From positions 32,001 to 96,000 of IMG/VR virus record IMGVR_UViG_3300028115_000004: a stretch of 64,000 nucleotides of DNA; one strand, 5' to 3'. The notes under the pieces were generated by a model. It saw only the letters and a list, made by a program, of their open reading frames with translations. It searched no databases and had not been told where the DNA came from. This stretch comes from a virus. A program made the translations under genes and the position numbers. This document shows positions 10,024 to 37,101 of this stretch, in pieces; positions within the stretch are counted from its first letter, which is position 1, and each line of letters opens with the position of its first letter.

Positions 10024-10602
10024 ATGGAACTTTGGTCTTGGAAAGACTTCTTGCCCGATGTAGTCTTTCACATGCGTGAACGTGACGAATCCCTTGAGGG
10101 GGACAATCCCTTCAAGTGGGTTCGTAAGACTACGGGCGAACTCTTTGGTGGCAAGAAGGTTGTCATCTTTGGACTGCCTGGCGCATTCACACCCACGTGT
10201 ACTAACGAACAACTTCCCGGCTTTGATCGACTCTATCAGGAGTTTGTTGATGCAGGAGTTGATGAAATCTGGTGTACGTCCGTGAATGATGCATTCTCTA
10301 TGTACCAGTGGGCAAAACAACTAGACATTAAGAACGTCAAGATGTTGCCTGACGGTAATGGTGAATTTGCAGAAGAACTGGGGGTGGTGGTTAAGAAGAA
10401 TAACCTTGGTTTTGGAAAACGTTCTTGGCGTCACGCTGTCATTGTGAATGATCTGGTGATCGTCAAACGTATTGAGGAAGATGGACTACGTGACAACTGT
10501 CCAACCGATCCCTATGAGAACACCACACCCGAAAACATTCTTTCTCTTGTCAGAAAAATCTCGGGAGAGTCCAGACAGATGCAGCTAAACTTCGGGGTGT
10601 AG
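10024..10602 (+). CDS. peroxiredoxin (Prx5-like)
   Basis: PGAFTPTC, SVNDAF, LPDGNGEF, GFGKRSWR. Confidence 0.9.
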   Translation: MELWSWKDFLPDVVFHMRERDESLEGDNPFKWVRKTTGELFGGKKVVIFGLPGAFTPTCTNEQLPGFDRLYQEFVDAGVDEIWCTSVNDAFSMYQWAKQLDIKNVKMLPDGNGEFAEELGVVVKKNNLGFGKRSWRHAVIVNDLVIVKRIEEDGLRDNCPTDPYENTTPENILSLVRKISGESRQMQLNFGV

Positions 10603-10669
10603 CTCAGTTGGATAGAGCAATGGCCTTCTAAGCCATCGGTCGGGGGTTCGAATCCCTCCACCTCGGCCA
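10593..10669 (+). tRNA. tRNA-Arg (TCT)
   Basis: Acceptor CGGGGTG/CACCTCG, anticodon loop CTTCTAA, GTTCGAATC, encoded CCA. Confidence 0.93.
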
Positions 10670-10673
10670 ATTT

Positions 10674-10747
10674 GCGGAGTTTGTATAGTGGTATTACCGG
10701 AGGTTTCCAACCTTCAGACGGTGGTTCGATTCCACCACTCCGCTCCA
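10674..10747 (+). tRNA. tRNA-Gly (TCC)
   Basis: Acceptor GCGGAGT/ACTCCGC, loop TTTCCAA, GTTCGATTC, CCA. Confidence 0.93.
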
Positions 10748-10751
10748 ATTT

Positions 10752-10827
10752 GCCGGTATAGCTCAGCAGGTAGAGTAGCTCACTTGTAATGAGAAGGTCG
10801 GGAGTTCGATTCTCTCTGCCGGCACCA
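10752..10827 (+). tRNA. tRNA-Thr (TGT)
   Basis: Acceptor GCCGGTA/TGCCGGC, loop CTTGTAA, GTTCGATTC, CCA. Confidence 0.93.
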
Positions 10828-11224: not shown

Positions 11225-11715
11225 TGAAGATTGTATTCCAAACTCAAATCCGTGAGAACTACGGCGCCCATGATTGGGATGGCAAGGGCGAATGCCCTCA
11301 GCGATGGAAGTTCAAAGGTGGTAACACCTATGTGGTCAACTGTGACCTCAATCAAGCCATGGATAAGGCGTTCTGGGAACGTGCATCCGCTGCAGTCACC
11401 GAAGATGGTGACTACTTCGAAGAGTACGTGCTCTCTTCGGAGTTGATCGATGATATCGATTACGTGGAGTCTCAACACGTTGCGGAGTGGGACGCACCCT
11501 ACTATCTCACTGAGATCGATGGTGGGTTCCAAGTAAATCGTACTGAGAATAACGATGCGATGGGTTACATGCGTAAGGAGATTGCGAAGAAGTACGAGGC
11601 GTATGTCATTCGCAACAACACCCGTGAGGACTATAAGTCTTCTTTTGAGATGGTCAATGGTCAGATCATCCCCTACGCTGAGTTAGGTAACTGGTTTGAG
11701 GCCTACGCAGCATGA
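11224..11715 (+). CDS. early hypothetical protein
   Basis: TQIRENYGAHDWDGKGECPQRWKFKGG N-terminus; TAATG coupling. Confidence 0.7.
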   Translation: MKIVFQTQIRENYGAHDWDGKGECPQRWKFKGGNTYVVNCDLNQAMDKAFWERASAAVTEDGDYFEEYVLSSELIDDIDYVESQHVAEWDAPYYLTEIDGGFQVNRTENNDAMGYMRKEIAKKYEAYVIRNNTREDYKSSFEMVNGQIIPYAELGNWFEAYAA

Positions 11716-12299
11716 GGGTAACTTGGGGTACATGGGTATCACTGGTACTCTTTTTAACTTTAATCGGAGTCGGGTTCTTTTATCAGGAACCCGCACCCAA
11801 GGTCGTAGTAGTTGATGCTCCTCTTGAGGAGGTTGTCCCTTCGGAACCGGAACCCCAACCGGAACCGGAGGGAACTTTTTATTCCGAGCGTGCGATAGAA
11901 TGTCTTGCACTTAACTCTTATTATGAATCACGTAATCAATCCCTTGCCGGTCAGATCGCAGTGGCGAACGTTGTCCTGAACAGGGTCAACAGTCCCAAGT
12001 TTCCCAATACTATCTGCGAGGTCATTCAACAAGGCCCTACCTTTGTGAACTGGAAAGGTAATGAGATGCCTGTTCGAAACAGGTGTCACTTCTCTTGGTG
12101 GTGTGATGGTAAGAGTGACATCCCCGCTGACGTAGTTACCTACTTAAAGATACTTGACACAGTGACCGAATTGTTGTATACTGACACAATTGATATCACG
12201 GATGGCAGTACGCATTACCATGCGGACTATGTTGAACCTGATTGGAGTAATCACTTTGAAAGGACAGTAGTGATCGACGATCATATATTTTATAAGTGA
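11712..12299 (+). CDS. cell wall hydrolase (SleB / Hydrolase_2), N-terminal membrane anchor
   Basis: CLALNSYYESRNQ, AVANVVLNRV, FPNTICEVI, FSWWCDGKSD, THYHA.YV.P.W, IDDHIFY. Confidence 0.9.
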   Translation: MRVTWGTWVSLVLFLTLIGVGFFYQEPAPKVVVVDAPLEEVVPSEPEPQPEPEGTFYSERAIECLALNSYYESRNQSLAGQIAVANVVLNRVNSPKFPNTICEVIQQGPTFVNWKGNEMPVRNRCHFSWWCDGKSDIPADVVTYLKILDTVTELLYTDTIDITDGSTHYHADYVEPDWSNHFERTVVIDDHIFYK

Positions 12300-12304
12300 A
12301 AGCT

Positions 12305-12514
12305 ATGAAACCAAGTGAATATTACGATGAGTTAGTTAGACACGACTGGTACTACGAGTACTCAGATGACTATAGTGTATGGCAGAGAGGTCAAGCTAAC
12401 AAACATCGTATACAGAGTATAGCTCAGGAGAACGAAGTTCTGTTGGGACTATATAAAGCCTACTCTGATTTTATTTTCAGAGAAGGCGATAAACCCACTA
12501 GACCGGAGGATTGA
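12305..12514 (+). CDS. hypothetical protein
   Basis: L..HDWYYEYSDD.SVW.RG motif. Confidence 0.6.
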   Translation: MKPSEYYDELVRHDWYYEYSDDYSVWQRGQANKHRIQSIAQENEVLLGLYKAYSDFIFREGDKPTRPED

Positions 12515-12515
12515 T

Positions 12516-12827
12516 ATGGAAGTAGGGCTAATAGTTGTCGGCGCAGCAGCAGTAATTTTGATGGTGCGAGTTATTTGGTGGTTTGTGGAAGGTGGAAGTG
12601 TGAACATTACTCCTATGGATGATGCAGGTGTTCGTCACCCTCCCGCTGATCCAACCGATCCAGTTAACGTGCAAGCCGAAGTTGTCGAGGACATCATCGA
12701 AGATTTGATCGAAGATGTGGACTTGATGAAACTCACTAAGAAAGAACTTATGAGCATGGCTGAAACTAAAGGCGTTGCTGTCTCTTCACGTATGAAGAAG
12801 TCAGACATCGTTGAACAGTTACAGTGA
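12516..12827 (+). CDS. membrane-anchored protein with C-terminal Rho-N/HeH-like domain
   Basis: N-terminal TM; DLMKLTKKELMSMAETKGV...KKSDIVEQL. Confidence 0.6.
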   Translation: MEVGLIVVGAAAVILMVRVIWWFVEGGSVNITPMDDAGVRHPPADPTDPVNVQAEVVEDIIEDLIEDVDLMKLTKKELMSMAETKGVAVSSRMKKSDIVEQLQ

Positions 12828-13064
12828 ATGCAGTTCTTTGATAAGGAGATTGCAAGGGAAACCTTAATACATGTGCTGATGGGGACAATCGTGAATTACC
12901 CCATCAGCATATTTTTTGCCTGGCTGTTTATCAGTCAGTGGGGTATTACAGACCCCGTTGAGTTCGCAACAATTTCTACCGTTGGGTTTTTTTGTATTGC
13001 CTTCACACGCATATACGTGGTAAGATACCTAACTGAAAAACGAAAGTTACGACAATCTAAATGA
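12828..13064 (+). CDS. small two-TM membrane protein
   Basis: Two hydrophobic segments followed by R.YVVR. Confidence 0.6.
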   Translation: MQFFDKEIARETLIHVLMGTIVNYPISIFFAWLFISQWGITDPVEFATISTVGFFCIAFTRIYVVRYLTEKRKLRQSK

Positions 13065-30648: not shown

Positions 30649-31180
30649 GAAAAAGACTGGCAGTATTGATGACATTACGCCAGAACAATGGAATGAAATG
30701 AATCGTCTTCATCTTGAAGAGGTGCGAGACTCAAAAGAAAACGACAAAGTTGTGAATATTGAGTATGACACGTGTAACGATATTGGGTTTCCGGAAGACA
30801 CCTTTACTTTAAGTGTGGGTGACATTACGGCTGATTCCATTCCGTTCACACTACACACCGACGATACTGTGAGTTATACAATCAAAGAACCCATCAACTA
30901 CAAGTTCAATGAAGGTGTGTTGATGGCAGAGTTCAAAGATTACATCGATTCGACTTACAGTGGTCACTATGGACAGGGTGGTTTACAGTCCTCTGAGATC
31001 ATCGTAGATCGTGGTCATGGTATGGGTTTCTTCTCTGGCAATGTTGATAAATACAACGGACGTTACGGTAAAAAAGGAGAAACGCCTGCAGACTATAGGA
31101 AGGACATTTTGAAGATCATTCATTATGGTTTCCTGATGCTGTACGAGCACGATAGAATTCATGGGAATACTACTGACTAA
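30635..31180 (+). CDS. DUF3310-like / putative nucleotide kinase domain protein
   Basis: YID.TY..HY...Q..E.I...G.G.GF..GNV.KY..RYGKK.....DI.KIIHY. Confidence 0.65.
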   Translation: MAKDKKKTGSIDDITPEQWNEMNRLHLEEVRDSKENDKVVNIEYDTCNDIGFPEDTFTLSVGDITADSIPFTLHTDDTVSYTIKEPINYKFNEGVLMAEFKDYIDSTYSGHYGQGGLQSSEIIVDRGHGMGFFSGNVDKYNGRYGKKGETPADYRKDILKIIHYGFLMLYEHDRIHGNTTD

Positions 31181-31991
31181 TGGTGACAGTTTTACGTATG
31201 GGGATGAACTGCCGGGTTCTCGGACTTATGGAGAGGACGGTGAAACGGCTCTCTTCGACTTAAATACACATCACCCCAAAACTTACACGTATAAACTAGC
31301 CAATCATCTTGGTGTTAACCACGTAAATTTGGCACATAACGGTTCTTCTAATCAAAAAATTTTTAGAAGAACCACCGCTTTCCTGCAGAGAACTACCAAG
31401 AAAGTAGACTACATGGTAATCATGTGGTCTTCTTGGGGTAGGTTGGAAGTTTTCTCGCCCATTACCTATAAGAAAGATAATGAAATGTTCATTCAGGAAG
31501 AGTGTAATATGAATCAACTTATTCCGGATCACCATGATCGTGAACTCGGGTTTAATCTAAAAAACTGGCCTGAAGGTGGTGAGGTTGGTCAAGCGGTAGT
31601 AGATTGGTACACCAAAGTTTATACCATGTCGACTCCGATTCTACATCATCTCAACTACATGTGTACTCTTCAACAGATCGCAGATTTAAAGGGTATCAAA
31701 ATCATACAAACCGGAATTCATCATGGAAACTGGCAGAATGTGTTGAGTTGTATGAATAGAGCTAAGAATGATGATCGTTTCAAACCTTGGTTGGCAGAGA
31801 TAGAATCTTGTTTTAGATACCTAAGACCGGAATGTAAGATAGGTTTTGGTGATAGACTAGATATGACATCTATTGCAGAGAGTCCAGATCACGAGGAATT
31901 TTTCATCTATCCCATGGGACATCCCTGCGAAGGAACACACACTTGGTATGCAGAGATGCTTTACAACGTATTTAAAGAGATGGAAGAATAA
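31161..31991 (+). CDS. SGNH/GDSL hydrolase-like protein
   Basis: GDSFTYGDEL, NLA..GSSN..I.R, WSSW.R.E, C-terminal GHP...H. Confidence 0.7.
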   Translation: MGILLTNGDSFTYGDELPGSRTYGEDGETALFDLNTHHPKTYTYKLANHLGVNHVNLAHNGSSNQKIFRRTTAFLQRTTKKVDYMVIMWSSWGRLEVFSPITYKKDNEMFIQEECNMNQLIPDHHDRELGFNLKNWPEGGEVGQAVVDWYTKVYTMSTPILHHLNYMCTLQQIADLKGIKIIQTGIHHGNWQNVLSCMNRAKNDDRFKPWLAEIESCFRYLRPECKIGFGDRLDMTSIAESPDHEEFFIYPMGHPCEGTHTWYAEMLYNVFKEMEE

Positions 31992-32782
31992 TGTTATTGA
32001 CCTGTGGTTGCAGTTTTGTTTGGGGAGATGAACTGGAAGGTTGTTACGATGACCCGCCAAATCATTGGAGACATACCTTTACCAGTCTCCTAGCTAAACG
32101 CTTGAGGGTGGATTATATCAATCTGGCCGCCTGTGGAAACGGAAACGATAAAATCTTTCGGGACGTTATGACCTATCTCACCGATCCGAATAGACGACAA
32201 CCAACACACATGGTGATTCTCTGGTCTAGTTGGCAAAGAACTGAAATGGCCGAACCCGACAATTCTCATCATGCGGGGAGAAATATCCAAAGGTTCGACT
32301 CAACATCACAGTTCTCACCTGAGAGAATCCACAACATACTTCCAAAGAAATGGGGTGCAGCTCACGCATGGTTTGATAGGGCATATGATGTCAGAACCGA
32401 TATCTTGAGACAACTTCCTCTCATGATTGCCATGCAAGAAATCTGTGACCTACGAGGAATCAAATTGATTCAAGGGGCATTCCACGATAGAATGATGGAT
32501 AACATTATGTGGTCACTTAAGGGTGGTGATAGTGGTGATTTTGCGGCGTGGAATAAAAAGTTCGGTGATCTGTTTGGTAAGTTGCGAAGTGAGAGTAGAG
32601 TTGGTCTTGGTAAATATGAGACACTGAGATCAGTGAGCGAGAGGTTGAAAGACATCAAACCTAACGCCCACCCTGGCGAAGCCTCCCACAGTGAATATGC
32701 GGGAATGCTTTATGGCATCTTTAACTCTTTTGAGATAATTCGACGATTCGACAAATCTGTTGTTTCTGATCATCAACCTTAA
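31991..32782 (+). CDS. SGNH/GDSL hydrolase-like protein (tandem paralog)
   Basis: GCSFVWGDEL, NLA..GNGN..IFR, WSSWQR.E, AHPGEASH. Confidence 0.7.
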   Translation: MLLTCGCSFVWGDELEGCYDDPPNHWRHTFTSLLAKRLRVDYINLAACGNGNDKIFRDVMTYLTDPNRRQPTHMVILWSSWQRTEMAEPDNSHHAGRNIQRFDSTSQFSPERIHNILPKKWGAAHAWFDRAYDVRTDILRQLPLMIAMQEICDLRGIKLIQGAFHDRMMDNIMWSLKGGDSGDFAAWNKKFGDLFGKLRSESRVGLGKYETLRSVSERLKDIKPNAHPGEASHSEYAGMLYGIFNSFEIIRRFDKSVVSDHQP

Positions 32783-33181: not shown

Positions 33182-33224
33182 TATAAATACCCATGAGGTC
33201 AAACAACTTTATGGGTATTTTTTT
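33182..33224 (+). promoter_or_regulatory. late promoter embedded in a 15-bp hairpin with U-tract
   Basis: TATAAATA 33182-33189; stem 33185-33199 / 33206-33220, T-run just before ATG 33225. Confidence 0.7.
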
Positions 33225-33779
33225 ATGCGTTACATAATTAGTTTTTGGATGCTTGCGGTGATATTAGCATCTACGGGGGTTCATGCACAGGAAGAAAATC
33301 CTGTTGAACCAATTGTTACTGAGAGTACGGTAATCACATCGGGGAAGTCTGAGACAACACTAAAGTCGCCCCCTGCGTCTGCCATCTCTCCTACGATCAA
33401 CACGTCTAACTCTGACCTATGTACTTTCGGAGTTGCGGGTGCGGTTCAGACTCAGATACTTGGTATCTCTATGGGATCACAAGTAACCGATGAGAACTGT
33501 GAGAGATTGAAACTGGCCAAGACTACCTTCGATATGGGTATGAAAGTGGCTGCGGTTTCCATCATGTGCCAAGACCCTCGTGTCTTTGACGCAATGATGA
33601 ATGCGGGAACACCGTGTCCCTATGACGGTATGATCGGAATGGAAGCGAAGGCTGCATGGGAGACTAATCCCGAACTGATGCCTGGCGCACCAGAGAAAAA
33701 GGAAGAACTGAGTAATGAGAACAAGACATTACTGGGCGGGGCTGGCGTTGCTACTCTGCTCTTCTTACTCTTACTCTGA
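33225..33779 (+). CDS. exported Cys-containing protein with beta-hairpin and C-terminal hydrophobic anchor (gene 1 of envelope operon)
   Basis: Signal peptide ending VHA-QE; 4 Cys; GVAGAVQTQILGISMG; C-terminal GGAGVATLLFLLLL. Confidence 0.7.
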   Translation: MRYIISFWMLAVILASTGVHAQEENPVEPIVTESTVITSGKSETTLKSPPASAISPTINTSNSDLCTFGVAGAVQTQILGISMGSQVTDENCERLKLAKTTFDMGMKVAAVSIMCQDPRVFDAMMNAGTPCPYDGMIGMEAKAAWETNPELMPGAPEKKEELSNENKTLLGGAGVATLLFLLLL

Positions 33780-34581
33780 GGAAGTCTACCAGTCTTCGCC
33801 TAACGCAGCCAATGCGGGGTTGAATTGGGTGATGACCAATATCCTGCCTCAACAGGCGGGACTGACAGTGAATGGTGTAGTATATCGATACACTGCTGTC
33901 AAGGATGCGGATGCGGACATGTTAGTCCATGTCCAGAACGAAGATGCAATCAATGGGGGTTACATCTTTCGTGAGACAGATGATTGGTCTGGACTGCCTG
34001 GCAATACAATTAATAAACAGGTTCCAGTTGCCAACATACCCATACAGTTTTGGGGTGACGGGTCGATTGAAGTAGAAGGGGAAGGAAGTGTTGAAAACCC
34101 TCTCGTAATCTACAATTATCGATACGACACTTGTTTTGGCGTTACGGATAATCCGGAATGTCCTGGCTACATGCCACCCGTTGCGATGCCTGATTTGACA
34201 GTGACCGATCCTATGGATGAACAATACGTCAAGGATGAGTTGGAGAAGAAGGCAGAGTTAGACGAACAAGACGAAGAAGATCGTCAACGTCGAAGAATGA
34301 TGTCGTCGTCGGAGGAGAAGGAGGACAAGAGACTGGCTGCAATATTGGGGATCGTCGATAACTCATTGTTGGCTGCAGAGAGCATGCAGAAACATGAAGA
34401 ATTGATGGCAATGCAGTACATACCCTCTAGTTACTATGTCGAACTCCCTGACACAAAGTATGAAGAAACGGTTGTTCTGAAGGACGCTGATCTGCCTGAC
34501 AATAGAAAGGCACGTAGACAGAGTGTTTCTCAACAACTCTTACATCAAGAGTTAGTAAATCTACAGTATGAAAAGAAATAA
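33715..34581 (+). CDS. exported protein: beta-rich N-domain, C..C..PGY motif, charged linker (adhesin-like?)
   Basis: Signal peptide ending SYS-EE; YRYDTCF...NPECPGY. Confidence 0.65.
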   Translation: MRTRHYWAGLALLLCSSYSYSEEVYQSSPNAANAGLNWVMTNILPQQAGLTVNGVVYRYTAVKDADADMLVHVQNEDAINGGYIFRETDDWSGLPGNTINKQVPVANIPIQFWGDGSIEVEGEGSVENPLVIYNYRYDTCFGVTDNPECPGYMPPVAMPDLTVTDPMDEQYVKDELEKKAELDEQDEEDRQRRRMMSSSEEKEDKRLAAILGIVDNSLLAAESMQKHEELMAMQYIPSSYYVELPDTKYEETVVLKDADLPDNRKARRQSVSQQLLHQELVNLQYEKK

Positions 34582-34606
34582 CAATTATAAAAACTAGGAG
34601 CAAGAA

Positions 34607-35104
34607 ATGAATAAAGCACTTATCCCTGCGATCATGGGATTAACATTTGCTGCCGCTGTGGCTGCTGAGATTCCGATTACCGGAAACGTAGAGTCTAAGT
34701 GTATCGTTACTACTGACGCCAACGGTGTTTATGGTAACCCTACGCCTAGTCTTCTGAGTACAACACAGGCAAACGGTGGTGTAGAACCTGTGGTTCGTTA
34801 CGATGTAATTCAGGCGGACTACTACAAGGCGTTGATCAGTGTACCAGACGTTTTCACAGAAAGCCCTGCACTGAATGATGTTGTCAACTGGTCTGGTGAC
34901 GTTACGGTTGGAGAAGTATCTGACCCTCTTATGTCTGCATACGACAATGACAAACGTCTATATAACAATATTACGGAGATTGATTTGACCGTTGCGGGAA
35001 GCACATGGTTTAAGATTTCTTCTGAAGCAGATTACGGATACGACAAAGCGTTCCCTGCTGGACAATACCGTTCGGTTGTGACTGCGGAGTGTATCGCAAA
35101 CTAA
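34607..35104 (+). CDS. putative chaperone-usher-type pilin (Csu / spore coat U-like)
   Basis: Signal peptide ending AVA-AE; IPITGNVESKCIV N-terminal strand; C-terminal FPAGQYRSVVTAEC. Confidence 0.55.
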   Translation: MNKALIPAIMGLTFAAAVAAEIPITGNVESKCIVTTDANGVYGNPTPSLLSTTQANGGVEPVVRYDVIQADYYKALISVPDVFTESPALNDVVNWSGDVTVGEVSDPLMSAYDNDKRLYNNITEIDLTVAGSTWFKISSEADYGYDKAFPAGQYRSVVTAECIAN

Positions 35105-35113
35105 GGTGACTCT

Positions 35114-35488
35114 ATGCGTTATATCATGACATTGTTATTTCTTTCCCTGTGTGGGTCAGCAATGGCCCACCAGTGGACACCCACCTATCCGAAGTTAGAA
35201 CCTTCGTATGTGAATGGTGCATTGAAAGCAACAATGACGTTATTCAATAGTAGACAGGATGTTTCCTATTACGAGATCGGTGTATTTGACGCCGATATGA
35301 AACCCGTGAAGTTTGCGACTGCGGAACGAATCGTTCAAGTCGGGTATCTACGAAGAATGAAGATTGATGTCTTCATTCGTGAACAGGACAGAAACGTAGC
35401 TGTATACATCTGTTCGAAATCCAAATTATTGAAGGGTGAGGGTACAGCAACTCTTATCGCTTCTAGAATATGTTCGAAGATAAAATGA
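35114..35488 (+). CDS. putative PapD-like pilus chaperone (single Ig domain)
   Basis: Signal peptide ending AMA-HQ; WTPTYPKL, MTLFN, YYEIGV, two Cys. Confidence 0.5.
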   Translation: MRYIMTLLFLSLCGSAMAHQWTPTYPKLEPSYVNGALKATMTLFNSRQDVSYYEIGVFDADMKPVKFATAERIVQVGYLRRMKIDVFIREQDRNVAVYICSKSKLLKGEGTATLIASRICSKIK

Positions 35489-35961
35489 AACCAAGTAGAT
35501 TTCTGTTATTCATCATTCTGTACTTTTGTGTAGGTTTCTACTGTGGTGCAGTGTATGGACAATCAAGTTCACTGAACCTCGCACTACCGCAATCGCCACA
35601 GAGTTTTCAATCCGACAGGGTAAGAGCAGGAGACCTAGAATGTTCTGCGGCCATTGGATCGTCTACCAACGTGGAGTTTGGTGTGGTGGGTATTCTGAAC
35701 CAGAATGATCCTTGGGATCAATACCGCAACACGATGAACGTCCAACCCATCGACGGTGGGTTTAATGGTCTGACATACAACGACAACTTCATGAGAGACG
35801 TTGGCGTGTATGCGAAGATCACCGTTCCTATTGGTGCACCGAAAGAACGTCTGAACTGTAACGCCCTGTACAAACTAGAATTAGAAAAGAAGAGACTAGA
35901 AGTCATGAAGTTAAAACAAGAATTAAATGCGCTTCGTAACTTACAGTTCGAGGAGAACTAA
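35485..35961 (+). CDS. exported protein with amphipathic beta-strands and C-terminal coiled coil (putative oligomeric outer-membrane component)
   Basis: Signal peptide; C..AIG..TNVEFGVVG, DVGVYAKITVPIG, C..LY.LELEKKRLE coiled coil. Confidence 0.55.
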   Translation: MKPSRFLLFIILYFCVGFYCGAVYGQSSSLNLALPQSPQSFQSDRVRAGDLECSAAIGSSTNVEFGVVGILNQNDPWDQYRNTMNVQPIDGGFNGLTYNDNFMRDVGVYAKITVPIGAPKERLNCNALYKLELEKKRLEVMKLKQELNALRNLQFEEN

Positions 35962-36458
35962 TGTCAGACGAAGATAAGACTACAATCGAATTTGGGGGAA
36001 TGTCATTTACTGGTGGTAAGGCGTTTGCTCTGGTAACCGCACTCTCTACACTCGGTGGTGCCGCTTGGGGTGGTTTTGAAATCTACAAAGACTATATGGA
36101 TATGAAAGAGATTATCCAGAACATAGATACCACAGAGATTGAGAACAGAAACCAACAGATCGAAATCAAGATGGATGAGATGTTGGCGCAAGTGAATCAG
36201 GCCATCGACTACTCACGTAGTATCAAGAATGACCTGAGAGACGACTTCAACCGTATGGAAGCGAATGTAGACCGAATCGAAGATCAGTCCCGTGACCTAG
36301 AAACTGAGGTTGAGGATATGATTGATCGTGCAGATGAACGTTTTGATATGAAGCGTGAATCATTACAGATGGACACTGATAAGAAGATTGAAGCACTGGA
36401 GAAGAGACTGAACGATAAGATTCAGACGTTCCTAGATAATCCTCTTGCCGATGGTTAA
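35961..36458 (+). CDS. single-TM coiled-coil protein
   Basis: TM AFALVTALSTLGGAAWGGF followed by long heptad region; ends LDNPLAD. Confidence 0.7.
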   Translation: MSDEDKTTIEFGGMSFTGGKAFALVTALSTLGGAAWGGFEIYKDYMDMKEIIQNIDTTEIENRNQQIEIKMDEMLAQVNQAIDYSRSIKNDLRDDFNRMEANVDRIEDQSRDLETEVEDMIDRADERFDMKRESLQMDTDKKIEALEKRLNDKIQTFLDNPLADG

Positions 36459-36475
36459 ATTAAGGCTTGACAGAT

Positions 36476-36859
36476 ATGAATTTTCGTGTTATACTAACAG
36501 CTATCTCTGTGGGGATGCTGATTACTGGATGTTCGCTAATCCCATCTCGGTGGGATGACAACGAAGCAGCCGGAGTCACCGATCTCTACAACTCTATTGT
36601 CACTATGGATTGCACTCTTCAACCTGTACTTATAAAACGTATGGTAGAGGATATTGACAAGAAGCACACGTGGGTGTTACACTACACCCAACTCAAAGGT
36701 ACAAAGGACATCGAAAGTCTTCTATTGAAGATGGATGATACTATTGATGGAATGGTCAAGCAGGAAAAGATCAACCCTGCTTATTGTAAAATCAAACAAA
36801 GACTACTCACTGAACAGTCAGAGGCAGTCGCTGCAACTATTATGGGAAGATTCAAATGA
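36476..36859 (+). CDS. lipoprotein
   Basis: Lipobox ITGC. Confidence 0.7.
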   Translation: MNFRVILTAISVGMLITGCSLIPSRWDDNEAAGVTDLYNSIVTMDCTLQPVLIKRMVEDIDKKHTWVLHYTQLKGTKDIESLLLKMDDTIDGMVKQEKINPAYCKIKQRLLTEQSEAVAATIMGRFK

Positions 36860-37101
36860 ACGAACTTGAAGAACTAGAGTCAATTGTCGCTCTTGAAGAT
36901 GAGGATTGGGAAGCATCCCGTCTTGCAGAAGTATTCATCGATATGGTCAAGTCCCGTGAAGCCGGTGAATTGACCGAAGCGGAGTTCACGGAACTCGTGG
37001 GTGACATGCGTCAGACTGAACTCATGTATGATGAGTCTGAGATGACCATTGCCAGACAACGGTTAGTAAAAGTTGCCGAAACCCTCGCAAAATTTAGCTA
37101 A
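36856..37101 (+). CDS. acidic hypothetical protein
   Basis: ATGA overlap with the lipoprotein gene. Confidence 0.6.
   Translation: MNELEELESIVALEDEDWEASRLAEVFIDMVKSREAGELTEAEFTELVGDMRQTELMYDESEMTIARQRLVKVAETLAKFS

Follow-up and report, generated by a model that had tools for sequence, protein, structure and literature searches.

We analysed a 64,000-nucleotide window of viral DNA (positions 32,001 to 96,000 of the IMG/VR record IMGVR_UViG_3300028115_000004), in which eight tightly packed genes on the + strand, here called gA to gH, form a cassette behind a T4-type late promoter. The first six fall into two modules, gA-gB-gF (module 1) and gC-gD-gE (module 2). Within module 2, gD is modelled with the fold of one half of a pilus chaperone, and it is confidently predicted to dock onto its neighbour gC, a pilin-like protein, by edge strands. 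An earlier note, made from the DNA alone, had suggested that the operon builds a fimbria-like appendage on infected cells. We consider a periplasmic, envelope-attached complex acting around lysis more likely than a fimbria or surface fibre, although we hold this functional reading tentatively and at a little under an even chance.

In its AlphaFold2 model (predicted local distance difference test, pLDDT, 88.6), which was searched in two independent ways, gD has a PapD-like fold, that of chaperone domain 1, an N-terminal immunoglobulin-like domain. The Foldseek matches of this model in the PDB are nearly all pilus chaperones (FaeE, PapD, DraB, SafB, FimC, Caf1M and CsuC, from E 5.6e-4), with MSP domains ranking next. 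The sequence pattern TPTYP...LFN...YYE, likened in the earlier note to the N-terminal part of PapD, is real and conserved, and so are two Cys residues (100/120). The proposed chaperone similarity holds in fold, but neither in sequence nor in the second domain. Pfam gave no match to gD at E up to 1, a six-frame search of the entire record with PapD_N (PF00345), at E up to 10, found no match, and hhalign against eight archaic chaperones returned a probability of 0.5% with signal peptides trimmed. Mature gD is about 106 residues long and forms one domain in 28/28 orthologues; the second, C-terminal chaperone domain, which forms the subunit-binding cleft, is absent from all 28. BFVD held no gD orthologue.

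The partner protein, gC, belongs to a family of at least 1369 homologous clusters and is modelled as a beta-sandwich (pLDDT 87). Its end motifs, [IV]P[IV]xGxVESKC at the N-terminus and PAGxYRxxVxAECIA at the C-terminus, are real and conserved as claimed, but do not amount to membership of a pilin family. The top Foldseek matches are chaperone-usher (CU) pilins (CfaB, the PapG pilin domain, Caf1, CsuA/B and FimG), all of them weak (E 1e-3 to 3e-2, TM-score 0.35-0.5), and a VIA search returned generic sandwiches only, with no specific pilin match. There was no match between gC and Pfam, Fimbrial (PF00419) included, SCPU (PF05229) was not found in the record, and hhalign against eight SCPU pilins gave a probability of 29% with signal peptides and 1.5% without. 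The idea of a Csu-like pilin thus keeps its end motifs and the weak structural matches, and finds no backing from sequence profiles or from VIA. Kinship of gC and gD to archaic pilins and chaperones, which for these comparisons were taken from eight gammaproteobacterial loci, was not supported, the weak hhalign signal being lost on trimming the signal peptides.

Prediction of the complex between mature gC and mature gD, in three runs, gave an ipSAE of 0.81, against 0.01 for the best control; 58 of 80 solved complexes attain that mark, as do 2 of 110 mismatched pairs. The three runs have at least 94% of contacts in common, and the pLDDT of the partners is at least 89. In the predicted contacts, residues 114-122 of gD pair with residues 156-164 of gC in parallel register, and the first strands of gC (29-44) are contacted by the N-terminus of gD (19-25). 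In solved complexes that show donor-strand complementation, the G1 strand of the chaperone runs parallel to the last strand of the subunit and the A1 strand lies on the opposite side. By comparison with these, the arrangement predicted for gC and gD is that of donor-strand complementation. The pairing that the earlier note had envisaged is thus recovered as a predicted docking by edge strands, and the claim that a half-chaperone-like gD binds gC in this way is supported by fold and by prediction, not by sequence.

Two terminal segments of the pair deserve separate mention. The mature N-terminus of gC (21-28) carries a conserved [IV]x[IV]xGx[VI] with alternating hydrophobics around an invariant Gly26; it is unstructured in the monomer model, lies outside the listed gD contacts in the complex, and would fit a free extension. 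At its other end, gC stops directly past its last strand. The first mature residue of gD, His19 (35168-35170), is invariant in 28/28 T4-like orthologues and is replaced by Leu in the homologue of phage River4. It may bind a metal or contribute to the interface with gC. A gD that acts as a periplasmic copper-type metal binder through this His, in the manner of the Ig-like proteins of the CopC, YcnI and PCuAC types, seems to us very unlikely, as fold matches of that kind rank far below the pilus chaperones, the River4 protein does not start with His, residues 19-25 fall within the predicted gC interface, and gD has no second conserved His.

The third gene of the module, gE, has a possible alternative start at 35470. 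In the alignment it shows two conserved strands with alternating hydrophobics (61-71 and 105-117), an indel-rich, variable loop (77-101), invariant Cys53 and Cys125 bracketing the strands, and a coiled coil next. The Cys-clamped amphipathic beta-hairpin that had been proposed for both gE and gA fits the sequences of gE, where strands and clamp are conserved. No relation between gA and gE was detected, hhalign having aligned their signal peptides only. An exhaustive profile search placed 351 representative clusters in the gE family. In two longer, distant relatives (P0331 and P0370) the gE-like part is followed by a peptidoglycan-binding domain of the OmpA type (PF00691, E 1e-14 and 1e-25); gE itself has no OmpA domain and no Pfam domain. 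Because the OmpA domain of these relatives is C-terminal to the hairpin and coiled coil, the gE module sits in the place of the anchor. Judged from these sequences, gE fits an oligomeric anchor in the outer membrane or envelope, and its use as an usher-like pore is conjecture.

One of the gE-OmpA fusions is deposited at NCBI under Vibrio pectenicida, where its contig measures 1.16 Mb. With this Vibrio protein as query, the gE-like module was found in about 50 cultured Vibrio phages. Against 400 gammaproteobacterial genomes, the matches listed cover the OmpA domain only (query residues 102-263), and hence say little on the gE module; four of these genomes were flagged as unpublished, and nothing positive is claimed from them. 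The whole of module 2 is present in River4, a T5-like phage of Vibrio harveyi, in which gp146, gp147 and an unannotated open reading frame (ORF; record positions 92785-93162) match the gC, gD and gE profiles (hidden Markov model E 6e-6, 7e-8 and 3e-13). This trio is followed by a 67-aa lipoprotein, one small gene, a holin and an endolysin. In this part of River4 (L169 4989-5517) the gE-like gene (125 aa) is not annotated as such, gp147 and gp148 covering parts of it, and the lipoprotein ORF, which overlaps its end, is also unannotated; its product may be an o-spanin. The circular 128-kb River4 genome record contains no gA.

From these parts an usher-free surface fibre might be assembled, with gC polymerising by donor-strand exchange after its release from gD, and with gE and/or gA as an oligomeric outer-membrane pore in place of the usher. 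The fold of gD and the predicted docking mode are typical of pilus chaperone-subunit pairs, the conserved segment 21-28 of gC is free in both monomer and complex models, gE combines amphipathic strands and a variable loop with its Cys clamp and coiled coil, and relatives of gE put this module where OmpA-family proteins have their membrane anchor. We nevertheless regard such a fibre as improbable. Mean column identity is higher in gC (65%) than in gD (45%), unlike what is seen in exposed pilins; VIA found no specific pilin match for gC, and gD lacks the second chaperone domain. A fibre would have no evident use when made minutes before lysis, and both modules adjoin lysis genes in cultured phages. 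As the earlier note had stated, no usher is encoded in the window: PF00577 was found neither there nor in the rest of the 115.9-kb record (about 65% complete by estimate), nor in the River4, Mosig and HTVC115P genome records. An usher supplied by the host could still serve. Literature searches on phage-encoded chaperone-usher parts and on pelagiphage lysis genes returned nothing relevant.

A scan of viral contigs with gC yielded 52 related loci (51-75% identity), and the order gA-gB-gC-gD-gE-gF is kept in 52/52 of them, while gG, gH and the flanks vary, gH having relatives in 7 ORFs only; the conserved synteny that the earlier note expected of a true system is thus present. In a tblastn search, gC and gE had no match among deposited phages. 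In genome collections, gC homologues are confined to short contigs assigned to metagenome-assembled genomes of unrelated phyla, and we read them as mis-binned phage DNA. Phage C48C1, the nearest deposited relative, shows no sign of the cassette: it gave no gA, gC or gE match, and the 42-kb stretch around its DNA polymerase holds other genes at the corresponding position.

On sequence grounds, gC-gD-gE and gA-gB-gF are separable units that are joined in one operon in the T4-like clade, since module 1 recurs without module 2, and module 2 stands alone in River4. The pelagiphage HTVC115P has gA, then a weak gB homologue and, three genes on, a strong gF homologue (E 8e-37), the set lying directly past the tail-fibre genes; two genes downstream of it is gp46 (L066 14511-14960), annotated as a toxin-activating lysine-acyltransferase. 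In the myophage Mosig, GTA_holin_3TM (PF11351, over the cut-off) comes first and gA second; the place of gB is taken by a large exported protein, and a gF-like gene and DUF7201 follow. The order gA, gB-like, gF-like is kept in nearly all of 80 further Mosig-type viral loci, where larger proteins occupy the gB position directly after gA, and some of these loci have a holin-like gene or a T4-type lysozyme just upstream. In the podovirus MW202481, a 368-aa protein annotated tonB stands next to gA where gB would be expected, and a holin-like protein and Phage_lysozyme come after the two. In the Roseobacter phage CRP-810, gp51 (L067 6387-6809), which adjoins gA and is annotated as a lysozyme, belongs by sequence to the transmembrane coiled-coil gF family (E 1e-11, with the NPL motif), and its annotation looks wrong. 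Its neighbour, annotated as an OmpA family protein, is the gA homologue and has no OmpA match in Pfam.

The coordinates of all eight genes and of the other features are given in Table 1.

Table 1. Features of the window, with positions counted from its first nucleotide
Feature	Position	Strand	Description
T4-type late promoter motif TATAAATA	33182-33189	+	Exact match
Stem-loop, 15 bp	33185-33220	+	Overlaps 3' part of late promoter; U-run and gA start codon next (RNA fold)
gA	33225-33779	+	Predicted exported; nearly invariant 4-Cys domain, acidic linker, C-terminal hydrophobic anchor; phrog_20531
gB	33715-34581	+	Predicted exported; conserved beta-rich N-domain, acidic linker, conserved C-terminal helix ending QY
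gC	34607-35104	+	Predicted exported beta-sandwich subunit; pilin-like end motifs, invariant Cys32 and Cys162
gD	35114-35488	+	Predicted exported single-domain PapD-like 'half chaperone'; invariant mature N-terminal His
gE	35485-35961	+	Predicted exported; disulfide-clamped amphipathic strand pair, variable loop between, C-terminal coiled coil
gF	35961-36458	+	N-terminal transmembrane helix, periplasmic coiled coil, invariant C-terminal NPL motif
gG	36467-36859	+	Lipoprotein candidate (lipobox LITGC); variable accessory gene
gH	36856-37101	+	Small acidic protein (22 D+E in 81 residues), no export signal; variable accessory gene
Probable lysis cluster	11712-13064		Hydrolase_2 with N-terminal transmembrane segment/signal-anchor, 103-aa transmembrane protein, 78-aa two-transmembrane protein

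Presence of the genes, their conservation, the late promoter and the export signals of gA to gE are well supported by the sequences. All eight ORFs were found where the earlier note had placed them, and its description of their products was accurate in outline: the first five have signal-peptide-like N-termini and conserved Cys in the mature part, gF is a transmembrane coiled-coil protein, gG has a lipobox, and gH is small and acidic. The export calls rest on hydropathy and orthologue alignments, in which gA to gE start with a hydrophobic stretch that varies among orthologues; behind it come a cleavage-type motif of small residues and the beginning of the mature part, which is well conserved. 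Annotation searches were largely silent. Pfam gave nothing meaningful on any of the eight proteins, PHROGs returned families of unknown function only, for gA and gE, with a marginal match for gG, profile searches of gA, gB, gC, gD and gE against PDB sequences found nothing below E 0.25, and ESM Atlas searches of gA and gE met viral hypothetical clusters only.

The exact match to TATAAATA that the earlier note took for a late promoter lies 36 nt 5' of the gA ATG (33225). Of 35 distinct related loci, 27 keep the motif ahead of gA. Six copies occur in the window against 1.5 expected, all six on the + strand. In two related loci (L040 and L045) a sigma-70-type promoter, TTGACA...TATAAT, stands ahead of gA in place of TATAAATA, so that timing may differ in some phages. 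The stem-loop that overlaps the motif has a predicted folding energy of -18.2 kcal/mol (z -5.6), and a stem of other sequence occurs at the equivalent place in related loci; it could act both as a terminator for the upstream gene and as a mask on the gA start in read-through RNA.

The protein encoded by gA has four conserved Cys (66/92/115/131) and belongs to a family of at least 8000 protein clusters, with homologues in Pelagibacter podophages, a Pelagibacter myophage, Roseobacter phages, and Achromobacter and Ralstonia phages. The last 65 nt of the gene, which encode the C-terminal hydrophobic anchor, are also the start of the gB signal peptide in a different frame (33715-33779), and this overlap is seen again in most related loci. 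In gB, Cys 140/149 are conserved. These two proteins bear on the possibility that the cassette masks the envelope, blocking receptors or the injection route against other phages or keeping progeny off debris, with gC-gD as a stable heterodimeric binder. All products appear to be directed to the envelope, the gA domain is near-invariant over widely differing phages, as a domain that binds some conserved structure of the host should be, gB-type proteins resemble carbohydrate-binding heads on long linkers, and late timing would suit the protection of progeny. We find this explanation rather doubtful. The T4 exclusion genes imm and sp are early genes, the neighbours of the cassette genes elsewhere are lysis genes rather than receptor-binding genes, and no receptor or target was identified.

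In gF, a single transmembrane segment (about residues 21-42) and the coiled coil after it are conserved. Its topology and size are those of an i-spanin, and gG, directly downstream, has a lipobox, so gF and gG might form an ordinary two-component spanin, with the other genes as unrelated exported morons linked by chance. A small lipoprotein also comes right after the gE-like gene of River4. This arrangement is unlikely to be the explanation, however. Among the distinct related loci listed, those with a lipoprotein gene immediately behind gF are a minority. In unrelated phage types gF is always accompanied by gA and gB, or by gE, and this constant company suggests that gF and its partners work together. 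Unrelated morons would likewise not be expected to keep six genes in strict order with stop codons overlapping the next start.

The case for a periplasmic complex acting around lysis draws on gene context. Both modules adjoin holin or endolysin genes in several cultured or deposited phages and, together with the lack of a pilus pore, this makes an envelope complex likelier than a surface fibre. We infer a composite, late-transcribed cassette whose products would be exported by Sec and then oxidised in the periplasm. There, gA would present a Cys-knotted domain tethered by its C-terminal anchor, and gB a beta-rich head on a long acidic linker. gF would be a coiled coil anchored in the inner membrane, with NPL at its C-terminus, and gE an envelope anchor made of a disulfide-clamped beta-hairpin and a coiled coil. 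In the manner of a pilus chaperone, gD would close off the exposed edge of gC, with pairing between the last strands of the two proteins and between their first strands. The products would then assemble into a periplasmic, envelope-attached complex active at or around lysis, and no usher-built surface pilus would be made.

Several observations weigh against this proposal. In the window itself, the endolysin (Hydrolase_2, 11712-12299) lies 21 kb upstream of the cassette, and an endolysin is found within 6 kb in only one of the T4-like loci. T4-like phages scatter their lysis genes, however, and the 21-kb distance is thus neither for nor against a link to lysis. The adjacency to lysis genes in other phages could mirror shared late timing alone. 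Part of the complex score of gC and gD may come from the model's having memorised chaperone-subunit structures already solved, and no sequence homology of the cassette to CU families was found.

The source of the window is an uncultured marine T4-like phage. Its DNA polymerase shares 70% identity with the enzyme of Phage C48C1 (Kyanoviridae) and about 47% with those of cyanomyophages, and T4-type replication genes are present in the window, on the + strand throughout. Megablast of the cassette region against deposited phages found no DNA-level match. Upstream of the cassette, here and in many related loci, are two adjacent paralogues with GDSF/GCSF N-terminal motifs (31161-32782), which match DUF6071 weakly, the second just over the cut-off and the first under it; in Phage C48C1 the gene is single. 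A cluster of three tRNA genes (Arg-TCT, Gly-TCC and Thr-TGT) lies at 10593-10827, and no lipoprotein was seen in the probable lysis cluster around the endolysin.

A bolder interpretation is that the cassette uses a minimal, usher-free form of donor-strand complementation, in which a subunit, its chaperone of one domain and an anchor of hairpin and coiled coil build, late in infection, a periplasmic or outer-membrane polymer or strut, either as a new kind of outer-membrane-disrupting lysis device that replaces spanins or as an usher-independent fibre. We think this unlikely on balance, but its consequences would be considerable. If gC and gD do pair by strand complementation, they would be the first such chaperone-subunit system from lytic phages and, having a single chaperone domain and lacking an usher, also the smallest known, and the mechanism would be workable outside the chaperone-usher pathway. 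The gC, gA and gE families are very abundant in aquatic viromes and carry no annotation, so a function for them would label thousands of 'hypothetical' phage genes. Because the modules are repeatedly placed beside holin and endolysin genes, the cassette proteins may also be the means by which certain marine phages that have no recognisable spanins get through the outer membrane. The presence of the trio in cultured Vibrio phages makes the question experimentally tractable.

Among known systems, the two-component spanins (lambda Rz/Rz1, T4 PseT.3/PseT.2) resemble the cassette in being late genes with envelope-bound products. The topology of gF is that of an i-spanin, lipoprotein genes are near (gG, and the 67-aa gene of River4), and the modules lie beside holin and endolysin genes in several phages. 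Unlike spanins, the cassette has six conserved proteins instead of two, its lipoprotein is no constant partner as an o-spanin would be, four of its proteins are beta-rich and predicted to be disulfide-bonded, and no match at the level of families was found. The OmpA-family tethers (OmpA, Pal and MotB) combine a membrane anchor with a peptidoglycan-binding domain, and this domain is carried by the relatives of gE. Their anchor differs from that of gE, which would supply a two-strand hairpin per chain and would need to oligomerise.

A single PapD-like domain also occurs in the eukaryotic MSP/ASH domains and other single-domain PapD-like proteins, which act in the cytosol as binders of peptides, FFAT motifs for example, whereas gD is predicted to be periplasmic and disulfide-bonded, with a beta-sandwich as its partner. 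The remaining comparison is with the CU chaperone-subunit pairs (SafB-SafA, FimC-FimA, PapD-PapK, FaeE-FaeG, Caf1M-Caf1 and CsuC-CsuA/B), which are exported by Sec, as gC and gD appear to be. As in these pairs, gD is predicted to meet the last and first strands of gC with its own G (last) and A (first) strands, and like the CU pilins, gC has a conserved N-terminal segment that is free in the models and ends after its last strand.

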